DNA of 64,000 bases, taken from the NCBI RefSeq assembly GCF_988243305.1, contig NZ_OZ547136.1; one strand, 5' to 3'. Below the pieces are notes generated by a model. That model made no database searches and was not told the origin of the DNA. It was given only the letters and a program-made list of their open reading frames with translations. The translations under genes and the position numbers were made by a program. How positions within the stretch are numbered: position 1 is the first letter of the stretch; each line of letters starts with the position of its first letter. This document shows, piece by piece, positions 164-10,310 of the stretch.

Positions 164-625
164 TCATGCTGCCGGGCTTTGTCCCTTTACCAGTTGGCTT
201 AAATTCACCGGCACATTGTTTTCAATGGCGGTGTATAAGCTGTCGTAAACGCCAGCGATTTTTTCGAGATAGTGTTCCAGAACCTGTTCGCGATCGCGGA
301 TGTTGACCTTGCCATCAATCATGCCGTCAATGCTCAGTTGCGCCTGCGCAATCCGCTGTTTGTCTTCACCATCTTTTGTTTCGACGTAATACTCGATGGT
401 GTGGCTGTTAAAGCCATCCGCCAGGGTGACGTAAATGCGAAAATGTTCAAAAAGGACGAAACAGAGTTCTTTGTCCGGCGCGCAGCTCATGGCGTGATGC
501 AGGCGCGCTTTCGATAACGTGATCCCCTGAACCAGCGAATTGCAGTAGATGTGCCACTGGTCCTGTAGGCGACGATGCCGCTGTGCGATGTAATCGGCTT
601 TCTCGCTTATTTCCCAAATAGTCAT
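164..625 (-). CDS. hycA: Formate hydrogenlyase regulatory protein HycA
   Basis: 153-aa ORF MTIWEISEKADYIAQRHRRLQDQWH...; divergent from hypA as in the hyc/hyp locus. Confidence 0.9.
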   Translation of the reverse strand: MTIWEISEKADYIAQRHRRLQDQWHIYCNSLVQGITLSKARLHHAMSCAPDKELCFVLFEHFRIYVTLADGFNSHTIEYYVETKDGEDKQRIAQAQLSIDGMIDGKVNIRDREQVLEHYLEKIAGVYDSLYTAIENNVPVNLSQLVKGQSPAA

Positions 626-4527: not shown

Positions 4528-6606
4528 ATGTCATATACACCGATGAGTGATCTCGGACAACAAGGGTTGTTCGACATCACTCGGACACTATTGCAGCAGC
4601 CCGATCTGGCCTCGCTGTGTGAGGCTCTTTCGCAACTGGTAAAGCGTTCTGCGCTCGCCGACAACGCGGCTATTGTGTTGTGGCAAGCGCAGACTCAACG
4701 TGCGTCTTATTACGCATCGCGTGAAAAAGACACCCCCATTAAATATGAAGACGAAACTGTTCTGGCACACGGTCCGGTACGCAGCATTTTGTCGCGCCCT
4801 GATACGCTGCATTGCAGTTACGAAGAATTTTGTGAAACCTGGCCGCAGCTGGCCGCAGGTGGGCTATACCCAAAATTTGGTCACTATTGCCTGATGCCAC
4901 TGGCGGCAGAAGGGCATATTTTTGGTGGCTGTGAATTTATTCGTTATGACGATCGCCCCTGGAGCGAAAAAGAGTTCAATCGTCTGCAAACATTTACGCA
5001 GATCGTTTCTGTCGTCACCGAACAAATCCAGAGTCGAGTCGTTAACAATGTTGACTATGAGTTGTTATGCCGGGAACGCGATAACTTCCGCATCCTGGTC
5101 GCCATCACCAACGCGGTGCTTTCCCGCCTGGATATGGACGAACTGGTCAGCGAAGTCGCCAAAGAAATCCATTACTATTTCGACATTGACGATATCAGCA
5201 TTGTCTTACGCAGCCACCGTAAAAACAAACTCAACATCTACTCCACTCACTATCTTGATAAACAACATCCCGCCCACGAACAGAGCGAAGTCGATGAAGC
5301 CGGAACCCTCACCGAACGCGTGTTCAAAAGCAAAGAGATGCTGCTGATTAATCTCCACGAGCGGGACGATTTAGCCCCCTATGAACGCATGTTGTTCGAC
5401 ACCTGGGGCAACCAGATTCAAACCTTGTGCCTGTTACCGCTGATGTCTGGCGATACCATGCTGGGCGTGCTGAAACTGGCGCAATGCGAAGAGAAAGTGT
5501 TTACCACTACCAATTTGAATTTACTGCGCCAGATTGCCGAACGTGTGGCAATCGCTGTCGATAACGCCCTCGCCTATCAGGAAATCCATCGTCTGAAAGA
5601 ACGGCTGGTTGATGAAAACCTCGCCCTGACCGAGCAGCTCAACAATGTTGATAGTGAATTTGGCGAGATTATTGGCCGCAGCGAAGCCATGTACAGCGTA
5701 CTTAAACAAGTTGAAATGGTGGCGCAAAGTGACAGTACTGTTCTGATCCTCGGTGAAACTGGTACAGGTAAAGAGCTGATTGCCCGCGCGATCCATAATC
5801 TCAGTGGGCGTAATAATCGCCGCATGGTCAAAATGAACTGCGCGGCGATGCCTGCCGGATTGCTGGAGAGCGATCTGTTTGGTCATGAGCGTGGGGCTTT
5901 TACCGGTGCCAGCGCCCAGCGTATCGGTCGTTTTGAACTGGCGGATAAAAGCTCCCTGTTCCTCGACGAAGTGGGCGATATGCCACTGGAGTTACAGCCG
6001 AAGTTGCTGCGTGTATTACAGGAACAGGAGTTTGAACGTCTCGGCAGCAACAAAATCATTCAGACGGACGTGCGTCTAATCGCCGCAACTAACCGCGATC
6101 TGAAAAAAATGGTCGCCGACCGAGAGTTCCGTAGCGATCTCTATTACCGCCTGAACGTATTCCCGATCCACCTGCCGCCACTACGCGAGCGTCCGGAAGA
6201 TATTCCGCTGCTGGCGAAAGCCTTTACCTTCAAAATTGCCCGTCGTCTGGGGCGTAATATCGACAGCATTCCTGCCGAGACGCTGCGCACCTTGAGCAAC
6301 ATGGAGTGGCCGGGTAACGTACGCGAACTGGAAAACGTCATTGAGCGCGCAGTATTGCTGACACGCGGCAACGTGCTGCAGCTGTCATTGCCAGATATTG
6401 TTTTACCGGAACCAGAAACGCCGCCTGCCGCAACAGTTGTCGCTCAGGAGGGCGAAGATGAATATCAGTTGATTGTTCGCGTGCTGAAAGAAACTAACGG
6501 CGTGGTTGCCGGGCCTAAAGGCGCTGCGCAACGTCTGGGGCTGAAACGCACGACCCTGCTGTCACGGATGAAGCGGCTTGGAATTGATAAATCGGCATTG
6601 ATTTAA
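4528..6606 (+). CDS. fhlA: Formate hydrogenlyase transcriptional activator FhlA (sigma54-dependent)
   Basis: ORF contains MSYTPMSDLGQQGLFDITRTLL..., GAF region, sigma54 AAA+ motifs (GETGTGKE, GAFTGA) and C-terminal HTH; start placed at internal ATG giving MSYTP. Confidence 0.92.
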   Translation: MSYTPMSDLGQQGLFDITRTLLQQPDLASLCEALSQLVKRSALADNAAIVLWQAQTQRASYYASREKDTPIKYEDETVLAHGPVRSILSRPDTLHCSYEEFCETWPQLAAGGLYPKFGHYCLMPLAAEGHIFGGCEFIRYDDRPWSEKEFNRLQTFTQIVSVVTEQIQSRVVNNVDYELLCRERDNFRILVAITNAVLSRLDMDELVSEVAKEIHYYFDIDDISIVLRSHRKNKLNIYSTHYLDKQHPAHEQSEVDEAGTLTERVFKSKEMLLINLHERDDLAPYERMLFDTWGNQIQTLCLLPLMSGDTMLGVLKLAQCEEKVFTTTNLNLLRQIAERVAIAVDNALAYQEIHRLKERLVDENLALTEQLNNVDSEFGEIIGRSEAMYSVLKQVEMVAQSDSTVLILGETGTGKELIARAIHNLSGRNNRRMVKMNCAAMPAGLLESDLFGHERGAFTGASAQRIGRFELADKSSLFLDEVGDMPLELQPKLLRVLQEQEFERLGSNKIIQTDVRLIAATNRDLKKMVADREFRSDLYYRLNVFPIHLPPLRERPEDIPLLAKAFTFKIARRLGRNIDSIPAETLRTLSNMEWPGNVRELENVIERAVLLTRGNVLQLSLPDIVLPEPETPPAATVVAQEGEDEYQLIVRVLKETNGVVAGPKGAAQRLGLKRTTLLSRMKRLGIDKSALI

Positions 6607-6650
6607 CAGATGTGGTTATACTCGATCAACATTCAATGAAAGGAGGCAGT

Positions 6651-7079
6651 ATGGCAGTTTCAGCAAGAAATCAATTAACCGGAACGGTTAGCGCAGTAGC
6701 AATGGGCGCTGTGAATGATGAAGTAGAACTGACGCTGGCAGGTGGTGCAAAACTGGTGGCAATTGTGACTCACAGCAGCCAGCAGGCTCTTGGTCTGGCA
6801 AAAGGGAAAGAAGCGATTGCCCTGATTAAAGCCCCGTGGGTCACGCTGGCAACGGAAGACTGTGGACTGAAATTCTCTGCTCGCAACCAATTTGCTGGCA
6901 GCGTGTCGACAATCACCGAAGGCGCAGTGAACGCCACTGTCCATATCAAAACGGATGCGGGTTTTGAAATTGTGGCAGTGGTAACAAATGAAAGTCAGGA
7001 TGAAATGAAACTCACCACTGGCTCGCGCGTTATTGCATTGATCAAAGCATCAGCCATCCTGATTGCCACCAAAGCGTAA
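6651..7079 (+). CDS. Tandem TOBE/Mop-domain (molbindin-like) small cytoplasmic protein, putative molybdate-binding
   Basis: 142 aa from MAVSARNQLTG...; two internally repeated halves (SARNQLTGTVSAV... and SARNQFAGSVSTI...); strong SD AAAGGAGG 6 bp upstream of the ATG. Confidence 0.75.
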   Translation: MAVSARNQLTGTVSAVAMGAVNDEVELTLAGGAKLVAIVTHSSQQALGLAKGKEAIALIKAPWVTLATEDCGLKFSARNQFAGSVSTITEGAVNATVHIKTDAGFEIVAVVTNESQDEMKLTTGSRVIALIKASAILIATKA

Positions 7080-7090
7080 GCGCCTTATTT

Positions 7091-7116
7091 GCCGGAGAGT
7101 ATGGCTCTCCGGCAGA
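7091..7116. terminator. Hairpin between convergent Mop-like gene and ygbA, candidate bidirectional terminator
   Basis: GCCGGAGAG-tatg-GCTCTCCGGC perfect 9-bp stem followed by T-rich tract. Confidence 0.5.
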
Positions 7117-7117
7117 T

Positions 7118-7462
7118 TTATTTCTTTGGACGATATTTTTCTGGCAACTCCGGCACCGGACGCTTGTCATCGATGAGATGACGCACGGTTAAGATCGGAT
7201 GACGCCACAGCATTCGCGGCCCAGCCCAACGCATAATCTGTTTCATCTCTTCACGCTTTGCAGGCTGGTAACAGTGCACCGGACACTGCTTACAGGCTGG
7301 TTTCTCTTCGCCGAACACACATTTATCCAGCCGCTTTTGCGCGTAAGTAAACAACGCCTCATAATGCTCCGGCTCCGCTGACGCCTGCGGGCATTTCGCT
7401 TGATAAAGATCGATCATTTTTTTAATCGTCAGTTTTTCACGAGAGATACGCTTGCCGGACAT
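7118..7462 (-). CDS. ygbA: YgbA, small NsrR-regulon protein of unknown function
   Basis: 114-aa ORF MSGKRISREKLTIKKMIDLYQAKCPQ...; position between fhlA and mutS. Confidence 0.85.
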   Translation of the reverse strand: MSGKRISREKLTIKKMIDLYQAKCPQASAEPEHYEALFTYAQKRLDKCVFGEEKPACKQCPVHCYQPAKREEMKQIMRWAGPRMLWRHPILTVRHLIDDKRPVPELPEKYRPKK

Positions 7463-7480
7463 GCTGCCTCCATACTCTTA

Positions 7481-7503
7481 AGGTGTATTTATATTACAAC
7501 TTA
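7481..7503 (-). promoter_or_regulatory. Candidate NsrR operator upstream of ygbA
   Basis: AAGGTGTATTTATATTACAACTT resembles the 11-1-11 NsrR inverted repeat (AAGATGCATTT-N-AAATGCATCTT), about 17/22 matches, 20 bp upstream of the ygbA start. Confidence 0.4.
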
Positions 7504-7748
7504 ATTTGAAAGGGGACTATGGCTCTGAAGGAGGAGGTTTATTCAACCGACGCAATTTTGCGTACCTGCTTCATAAGCATCACGCAAAAGCTGCAAAACA
7601 GCATCTTTCCCGGAATCACCATCAAGAACTCGCCGTTCGCTTCTTCCCCTGAAATGATTAACTCCGGTATCATGTGCGCCTTATGTGATTACAACGAAAA
7701 TAAAAACCATCACACCCCATTTAATATCAGGGAACCGGACATAACCCC

Positions 7749-10310
7749 ATGAGTGCAATAGAAAATTTCGATGCCCATACGCCCATGATGCAGCAGTATC
7801 TCAAGCTGAAAGCCCAGCATCCCGAGATCCTGCTGTTTTACCGGATGGGTGATTTTTATGAACTGTTTTATGACGACGCAAAACGCGCGTCGCAACTGCT
7901 GGATATTTCACTGACCAAACGCGGTGCTTCGGCGGGAGAGCCGATCCCGATGGCGGGGATCCCCTACCATGCGGTGGAAAACTACCTCGCCAAACTGGTG
8001 AATCAGGGCGAGTCCGTTGCCATCTGCGAACAAATTGGCGATCCGGCGACCAGCAAAGGTCCGGTTGAGCGCAAAGTTGTGCGTATCGTTACGCCGGGCA
8101 CCATCAGCGATGAAGCCCTGTTACAAGAGCGCCAGGACAATCTGCTGGCGGCTATCTGGCAGGACAGCAAAGGTTTCGGCTACGCGACGCTGGATATCAG
8201 TTCCGGTCGTTTTCGCCTGAGCGAACCGGCTGACCGGGAAACGATGGCGGCAGAACTGCAACGCACTAATCCGGCGGAACTGCTATATGCAGAAGATTTT
8301 GCTGAAATGTCGTTAATTGAAGGTCGTCGCGGTCTGCGCCGTCGTCCGCTGTGGGAGTTTGAAATCGACACCGCGCGCCAGCAGTTGAATCTGCAATTTG
8401 GCACCCGCGATCTGGTCGGTTTTGGCGTCGAGAACGCGCCGCGCGGACTTTGTGCTGCCGGTTGTCTGTTGCAGTATGCGAAAGATACTCAACGCACGAC
8501 CCTGCCGCATATTCGTTCTATCACCATGGAACGTGAGCAGGACAGCATCATTATGGATGCCGCGACACGTCGTAACCTGGAAATTACTCAGAACCTGGCG
8601 GGCGGTGCGGAAAACACGCTGGCTTCAGTGCTCGACTGCACTGTAACGCCAATGGGTAGTCGTATGCTGAAACGCTGGCTGCATATGCCAGTGCGCGATA
8701 CCCGCGTGTTGCTTGAGCGCCAGCAAACTATTGGCGCATTGCAGGATTTCACCGCCGAGCTACAGCCGGTGCTGCGTCAGGTCGGCGACCTGGAACGTAT
8801 TCTGGCACGTCTGGCTTTACGAACTGCTCGCCCACGCGATCTGGCCCGTATGCGTCACGCTTTCCAGCAACTGCCGGAGCTGCGTGCGCAGTTAGAAAAT
8901 GTCGATAGCGCTCCGGTACAGGCGCTGCGTGAGAAGATGGGTGAGTTTGCCGAACTGCGCGATCTGCTGGAGCGGGCCATTATCGACACACCGCCGGTAC
9001 TGGTGCGCGACGGTGGTGTTATCGCATCGGGCTATAACGAAGAGCTGGATGAGTGGCGCGCGCTGGCTGACGGCGCGACCGATTATCTGGAGCGTCTGGA
9101 AGTCCGCGAGCGTGAACGTACCGGCCTGGACACGCTGAAAGTTGGCTTTAATGCGGTGCACGGCTACTACATTCAGATCAGCCGTGGACAAAGCCATCTG
9201 GCCCCCATCAATTACATGCGTCGCCAGACGCTGAAAAACGCCGAGCGCTACATTATTCCAGAGCTAAAAGAGTACGAAGACAAAGTTCTCACCTCAAAAG
9301 GCAAAGCACTGGCACTGGAAAAACAACTTTATGAAGAGCTGTTCGACCTGCTGTTGCCGCATCTGGAAGCGTTGCAACAGAGCGCGAGCGCGCTGGCGGA
9401 ACTTGATGTGCTGGTTAACCTGGCGGAACGGGCCTATACCCTGAACTACACCTGCCCGACCTTCATTGATAAACCGGGTATTCGCATCACCGAAGGTCGC
9501 CATCCGGTGGTTGAACAGGTACTGAACGAGCCATTTATCGCCAACCCGCTGAACCTGTCGCCGCAGCGTCGCATGTTGATCATTACCGGTCCGAATATGG
9601 GCGGTAAAAGTACCTATATGCGCCAGACCGCACTGATTGCGCTGATGGCCTACATCGGCAGCTATGTACCGGCACAAAAAGTCGAGATTGGACCTATCGA
9701 CCGTATCTTCACCCGCGTAGGGGCAGCGGATGATCTGGCATCCGGGCGTTCAACCTTTATGGTGGAGATGACCGAAACCGCCAATATTCTGCATAACGCC
9801 ACCGAGTACAGTCTGGTACTGATGGATGAGATTGGGCGCGGGACGTCCACTTACGATGGTCTGTCGCTGGCGTGGGCGTGCGCGGAAAATCTGGCGAATA
9901 AGATTAAAGCGTTGACGTTGTTTGCCACCCACTATTTCGAGCTGACCCAGTTACCGGAGAAAATGGAAGGCGTCGCCAACGTGCATCTCGATGCACTGGA
10001 GCACGGCGACACCATTGCCTTTATGCACAGCGTGCAGGATGGCGCGGCGAGCAAAAGCTACGGCCTGGCGGTTGCAGCTCTGGCGGGCGTGCCAAAAGAG
10101 GTTATTAAGCGCGCACGGCAAAAACTGCGTGAGCTGGAAAGCATTTCGCCGAACGCCGCCGCGACACAGGTCGATGGCACGCAGATGTCGCTGCTTTCAG
10201 TGCCGGAAGAAACCTCGCCCGCGGTGGAAGCGCTGGAAAATCTCGACCCGGATTCACTCACTCCGCGCCAGGCGCTGGAGTGGATTTATCGGTTGAAGAG
10301 TCTGGTATAA
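7749..10310 (+). CDS. mutS: DNA mismatch repair protein MutS
   Basis: 853-aa [43 protein letters not shown]... with Walker [10 protein letters not shown]. Confidence 0.97.

Follow-up and report, generated by a model that had tools for sequence, protein, structure and literature searches.

The 64-kb stretch of E. coli DNA analyzed here, which we refer to as the window, carries at 7480-7502 the already published operator of the repressor NsrR at ygbA, in the form of a common natural allele. Very probably this element is the operator through which NsrR controls ygbA, spanning the predicted -10 region of the ygbA promoter and presumably acting by an occlusion that nitric oxide (NO) relieves. The element matches the NsrR motif with high statistical significance, can be identified with published sites and, throughout the Enterobacteriaceae, is kept at a constant spacing from ygbA. 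NsrR-dependent repression and in vivo binding are known from the literature on E. coli K-12, and derepression from that on Salmonella; by analogy, the same behavior would be expected of the locus in the window.

The window belongs to E. coli: the region 6600-7800 is matched in 5420 of 5426 complete E. coli genomes, with a best identity of 99.9 %. Following the RefSeq annotation of a near-identical genome, the gene order is fhlA, a TOBE-domain gene, ygbA on the minus strand, an open reading frame (ORF) for a hypothetical protein of 44 aa, and mutS. The K-12 locus is arranged as in the window, but without the TOBE gene. The protein encoded by ygbA matches the Pfam profile PF11756 (YgbA_NO) over positions 1-104 of 106 with E = 5e-41 and a score of 139.8 bits, well over the curated cut-off of 25, which makes it a member of this family. 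The operator is located in the ygbA-mutS intergenic region, which measures 286 bp with a GC content of 43 %. Its sequence, AAGGTGTATTTATATTACAACTT, occurs once in the window and ends 17 nt before the start codon of ygbA, a minus-strand gene. The gene and its operator are laid out as follows:

7118-7462, minus strand: coding sequence of ygbA, the regulated gene, 114 aa (from the ORF list and the RefSeq annotation of a 99.9 % identical genome)
7467-7471, minus strand: Shine-Dalgarno sequence GGAGG of ygbA, read from the sequence, with a spacer of 4 nt (GCAG) to the ATG
7480-7502, no strand: NsrR operator, an 11-1-11 imperfect inverted repeat, reading AAGGTGTATTT-A-TATTACAACTT on the plus strand
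7480-7502, minus strand: the same operator in ygbA orientation, AAGTTGTAATA-T-AAATACACCTT

Several features of the surrounding DNA deserve a brief description. The TOBE-domain gene between fhlA and ygbA (6651-7079, plus strand) is of the molybdate-binding type (Pfam PF03459, E = 9e-35). About 1888 of 5420 E. coli genomes carry this gene, whereas K-12 and O157:H7 lack it, a distribution that identifies it as a variable insertion adjoining the 3′ end of ygbA. Between these two convergent genes, 7087-7117 holds a strong hairpin of 14 pairs (ATTTGCCGGAGAGTATGGCTCTCCGGCAGAT) followed by a T-rich stretch, which is probably a bidirectional terminator. On the other side of ygbA, upstream and on the same strand, the 44-aa ORF (7539-7673, minus) is labeled 'hypothetical protein' by RefSeq/PGAP and found no match in a Pfam search. 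This ORF, which may not be a real gene, includes inverted repeats (7549-7605) and a hairpin resembling a terminator (7602-7590). In one E. coli genome, a plasmid record holds a further copy of the ygbA upstream region (1 of 5461 places).

An NsrR operator was defined as a 23-bp 11-1-11 repeat of the form AAGATGYATTT-n-AAATRCATCTT that scores above the level of accepted sites. Compared with the consensus AAGATGCATTTnAAATGCATCTT, which is degenerate (Y/R) at positions 7 and 17, the element in the window agrees strictly at 16 of 22 positions and at 18 of 22 once Y/R is allowed. The match of about 17 of 22 given in the initial annotation is thus a fair description; the sequence reported there was correct as well, while the position, 7481-7503, was one base off from the true 7480-7502. 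The two halves differ in quality: the ygbA-proximal half (7480-7490) agrees with the half-site consensus at 10 of 11 positions with Y allowed, and the distal half (7492-7502) at 8 of 11, or 7 of 11 strictly. Within the operator itself, 8 of the 11 arm pairs are self-complementary. The arms are too imperfect for the operator to be picked up by an inverted-repeat finder using a seed of 6 bases, which found repeats at 7549-7605 only.

To score the element, a palindromic weight matrix was derived from 25 NsrR sites of E. coli CFT073 (Mehta 2015, Table 4, PMC5320621), leaving out ygbA and one duplicate. The operator is the top hit of this matrix in the 64-kb window, with 20.0-20.2 bits. The training sites score from 12.5 to 31 bits (n = 25), placing the operator mid-range among the accepted full sites; the proposal of an NsrR site, for which a score below threshold would have counted against the motif, therefore stands at 20 bits. 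Everything else in the window remains at or below 11.5 bits, with the exception of a runner-up of 16.3 bits at 75-97, which is the hycB training site. From the exact score distribution, the probability per position is 8e-8 for a uniform base composition, 9e-7 at 62 % AT and 4e-6 at 70 % AT. The number of matches expected by chance amounts to 0.005-0.06 per 64 kb and to 2e-5 to 2.5e-4 in the 286-bp intergenic region.

The runner-up, AACATGCCGATGAAATGTCATTT, lies between hycA (164-625, minus strand) and the start of hycB and is the reverse complement of AAATGACATTTCATCGGCATGTT, a published 11-1-11 NsrR site that is ChIP-seq positive in CFT073. It differs from the ygbA operator in its lower score and in its setting, between two genes of one operon and not over an obvious -10.

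The NsrR sites published for ygbA coincide with the element in the window; a mapped site lying elsewhere would have spoken against it. In CFT073, the site upstream of ygbA is AAGGTGCATTTATATTACAACTT, with a PatSer ln(P) of -16.65 for a threshold of -14.28 (Mehta 2015, Table 4, PMC5320621). The window agrees with it at 22 of 23 bases, and the lone difference, C to T, falls on the degenerate Y position: on the plus strand, CFT073 has C at operator position 7, and both the window and K-12 have T. An earlier prediction gives the E. coli ygbA site as GATGtAaTaTAAATaCATC at -37 and lists a ygbA site of Erwinia carotovora at -40 (Rodionov 2005, supplementary NsrR-site table, PMC1274295). The former makes up the 19-bp core of the allele found in K-12, at an equal distance from the start codon. 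Read in ygbA orientation, the K-12 site is AAGATGTAATATAAATACATCTT, and 17 nt separate it from the ATG, just as they do in the window. The two share 21 of 23 bases, half-site position 4 being G/T in the window and A/A in K-12.

The frequency of these alleles was determined by counting exact 31-mers centered on the operator in 5426 complete E. coli genomes. The window allele occurs in 1299 genomes, the K-12 allele in 2111 and the CFT073-type allele in 1120, and with the matrix they score 20.0, 21.6 and 21.0 bits, respectively. All differences between the three alleles fall on half-site positions 4 and 7, which contribute relatively little information to the motif (0.5-0.7 bits).

Published work agrees with the view of the initial annotation that ygbA is an NO-responsive NsrR target. 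According to Mehta 2015 (PMC5320621), which cites Bodenmiller & Spiro 2006 and Partridge 2009, ygbA of K-12 is regulated by NsrR and its promoter is bound in ChIP-chip. In nitrate-grown CFT073, ygbA is among the genes most induced by nitrate/NO (PMC5320621). NsrR ChIP-seq in CFT073 gave no peak at ygbA, which the authors consider a false negative (PMC5320621); the NsrR protein is identical in CFT073 and K-12 (Mehta 2015, PMC5320621). In a Salmonella nsrR mutant, the literature reports a 31.8-fold increase in ygbA mRNA, to be compared with a derepression of 544-fold for ytfE and 284-fold for hcp.

Conservation was assessed on 80 loci from many enterobacterial genera, collected by a YgbA protein scan with one genome per species and including Escherichia, Citrobacter, Salmonella, Enterobacter, Klebsiella, Raoultella, Kluyvera, Lelliottia, Leclercia and Rahnella. 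For all but one of the 80 species (79 of 80), the highest-scoring matrix hit of the whole 2-3.3 kb locus is found 12-25 nt upstream of the ygbA start, and 75 of 80 score at least as high as the weakest training site. When the 110 nt preceding ygbA are aligned with MAFFT, the operator is the sole block of strong conservation apart from the ribosome-binding site and the start codon; the GGAG of the Shine-Dalgarno sequence is kept in many of the aligned species, and further upstream the sequence becomes unalignable between genera. Among 68 distinct orthologous sites, positions 1, 2, 6, 7, 8, 11, 12, 18, 22 and 23 reach 1.9-2.0 bits. The outer arms AA..G / C.TT are thus nearly invariant. Conservation per position correlates weakly with the information content of the motif (Spearman 0.27-0.36, not significant) and is not counted as support. 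By its motif, its promoter location and its conservation, the element belongs among the NsrR (Rrf2-family) operators of the Enterobacteriaceae.

Two loci of this collection stand apart. The exception to the position of the best hit is Enterobacteriaceae bacterium UBA5654, where the sequence about 18 nt upstream of ygbA, AAGAGGTAACATTCAAGCCTCTT, is the one poorly scoring site among the 80 (3.9 bits) and yet retains the outer arms together with a TAnnAT hexamer; NsrR control may have decayed in this species, or the specificity of the regulator may have changed. A contig labeled 'Chryseobacterium sp. 18061' (CACSKA010000005.1) has a ygbA gene of enterobacterial type, with 82 % identity at the protein level and a typical NsrR site. 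The region upstream of this gene is close to its counterpart in 'Citrobacter sp. 18056', sequenced in the same project, and the 'Chryseobacterium' assembly is probably mislabeled or contaminated.

The initial annotation also had the operator overlap the likely ygbA promoter. This part of the claim finds its support, by inference from sequence, in a conserved -10-like hexamer inside the site. In ygbA orientation, operator positions 7-12 follow the pattern TAnnAT across the 68 distinct orthologous sites, with T7, A8 and T12 present in all 68 and A11 in 67; the hexamer appears as TATTAT, TAAAAT, TAATAT, TAGAAT and a few other variants. Among the sites compared, the pattern is specific to ygbA: when the 25 remaining NsrR sites are read both ways, none has TAnnAT in that register (0 of 50). 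At those sites, T occupies position 11 in 41 of 50 cases and the spacer position 12 is unconstrained (14/14/11/11). Because T12 is an invariant base in the spacer and position 11 shows a conserved departure from the NsrR consensus, we infer a -10 hexamer at this place, and the promoter would comprise the following features:

7514-7519, minus strand: candidate weak -35 element TAGTCC, 3 of 6 matches to TTGACA, separated from the -10 by 17 nt, from a reading of the sequence
7491-7496, minus strand: candidate sigma-70 -10 hexamer TAATAT, operator positions 7-12 in ygbA orientation, from the conserved TAnnAT
7484, minus strand: predicted start of transcription at an A, 7 nt past the candidate -10, from promoter geometry

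Transcription from 7484 would produce a 22-nt leader, ACCTTAAGAGTATGGAGGCAGC, and would put the operator at about -18 to +5. Across genera, T/C-x-G alone is loosely shared in the -35 candidate. A generic sigma-70 scan of 7050-7800 called no promoter, because the best -35 candidate has 3 of 6 matches, and the assignment of the -10 and -35 is consequently a comparative one. A search of the literature for a ygbA promoter or transcription start found none, and the ROSE paper on in vitro transcription makes no mention of ygbA. Both the -10 and the start site are placed by prediction, as is, by extension, the occlusion.

The proposed mechanism follows from this geometry. A dimer of NsrR, an Rrf2-family Fe-S repressor, would bind the imperfect 11-1-11 inverted repeat at 7480-7502. 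The repeat would cover about -18 to +5, including the -10 hexamer TAATAT (7496-7491, minus strand), and bound NsrR would therefore exclude RNA polymerase. NsrR is released from DNA on NO-dependent modification of its Fe-S cluster, and nsrR is unlinked to ygbA in E. coli. At ygbA, NO would nitrosylate the cluster, NsrR would leave the operator and the gene would be transcribed.

The presence of a conserved -10-like hexamer in the site raises the question of whether the element is a mere AT-rich sigma-70 core, consisting of a -10 and a discriminator, with an incidental likeness to NsrR sites and an NO response that is indirect or located elsewhere. An AT-rich background lifts the chance rate about 10- to 40-fold, and the negative ChIP-seq result at ygbA in CFT073 would fit this explanation. 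Yet even at 70 % AT only about 1e-3 such matches are expected in the ygbA-mutS intergenic region, and no second matrix hit above 11.5 bits is found near ygbA. In the arms, the G/C positions G6, C18 and C21 persist across many genera, as do the terminal AA/TT, and K-12 ChIP-chip binding and nsrR-dependent expression are reported in the literature. We regard a purely incidental likeness of an AT-rich promoter to NsrR sites as very unlikely.

The palindrome could also serve a regulator other than NsrR, such as FNR, NarL/NarP, Fur or the Rrf2 paralog IscR. As context for this explanation, ygbA responds to growth on nitrate or nitrite, conditions that also act via NarL/NarP and FNR, and a weak FNR-like match, TTCATAAGCATCAC, with 2 substitutions from TTGATnnnnATCAA, is present at 7570-7583. 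This match, however, is located about 92 bp upstream of the predicted start and is conserved within Escherichia but not between genera; it is probably due to chance. Consensus scans for FNR (up to 2 substitutions), the NarL/P 7-2-7 site (up to 3), the exact NarL heptamer and the Fur box (up to 5) found nothing overlapping 7480-7502. With the scans covering FNR, NarL/NarP and Fur, we consider control by another regulator in place of NsrR very unlikely.

NsrR remains the preferred regulator, and the manner in which it reads the element can be considered in two ways that do not contradict each other. As a variant of full-operator recognition, NsrR might mainly read the single good proximal 11-mer, AAATACACCTT (7480-7490), with the distal 'half' amounting to the -10 region and repression being weak or partial. 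The unequal halves (10 of 11 for the proximal against 7-8 of 11 for the distal) fit this variant, and a lone 11-bp motif can serve as an NsrR site according to Mehta 2015 (PMC5320621), which restates Partridge 2009. So do the missing ygbA peak in CFT073 and a derepression in Salmonella that is much smaller than that of ytfE and hcp. Against it, the distal outer arm AAG..GTA is conserved equally to the proximal arm, with positions 1, 2, 6, 7 and 8 at 1.9-2.0 bits. Positions 1-6 are outside the -10 hexamer, which alone would impose no need for them, and the score of the full 23-bp matrix is typical of accepted full sites. Recognition of the proximal half only is thus rather unlikely, and we favor binding to the full operator.

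The near-perfect operator of ytfE, AAGATGCATTTAAAATGCATCTT, provides a reference for such full sites. It shares with the ygbA site the 11-1-11 architecture, the outer arms AAG...CTT and a promoter-proximal position at an NO-induced gene, but the two agree at only 16 of 22 positions. The distal half reads TAATAT (TAnnAT) in ygbA and CATTTA in ytfE, and in that register the ygbA sequence is unique among the listed sites.

Membership of ygbA in the NsrR regulon has long been recognized; its operator was already a prediction in 2005 and appeared once more in a 2015 listing. The relevance of the present analysis lies mostly in annotation, and its additions beyond these papers are modest: the breadth of the footprint and the embedded -10 hexamer. 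Such a hexamer would account for the degenerate half-site and offers a simple mechanism of occlusion. We tentatively suggest that the ygbA operator may be dual-coded, the embedded -10 (TAnnAT at positions 7-12) holding the distal half-site off the NsrR consensus in every enterobacterial species examined. Promoter strength would then be traded against repressor affinity within six bases, and the three common E. coli alleles, which vary at half-site positions 4 and 7, could set different NO thresholds by lineage.
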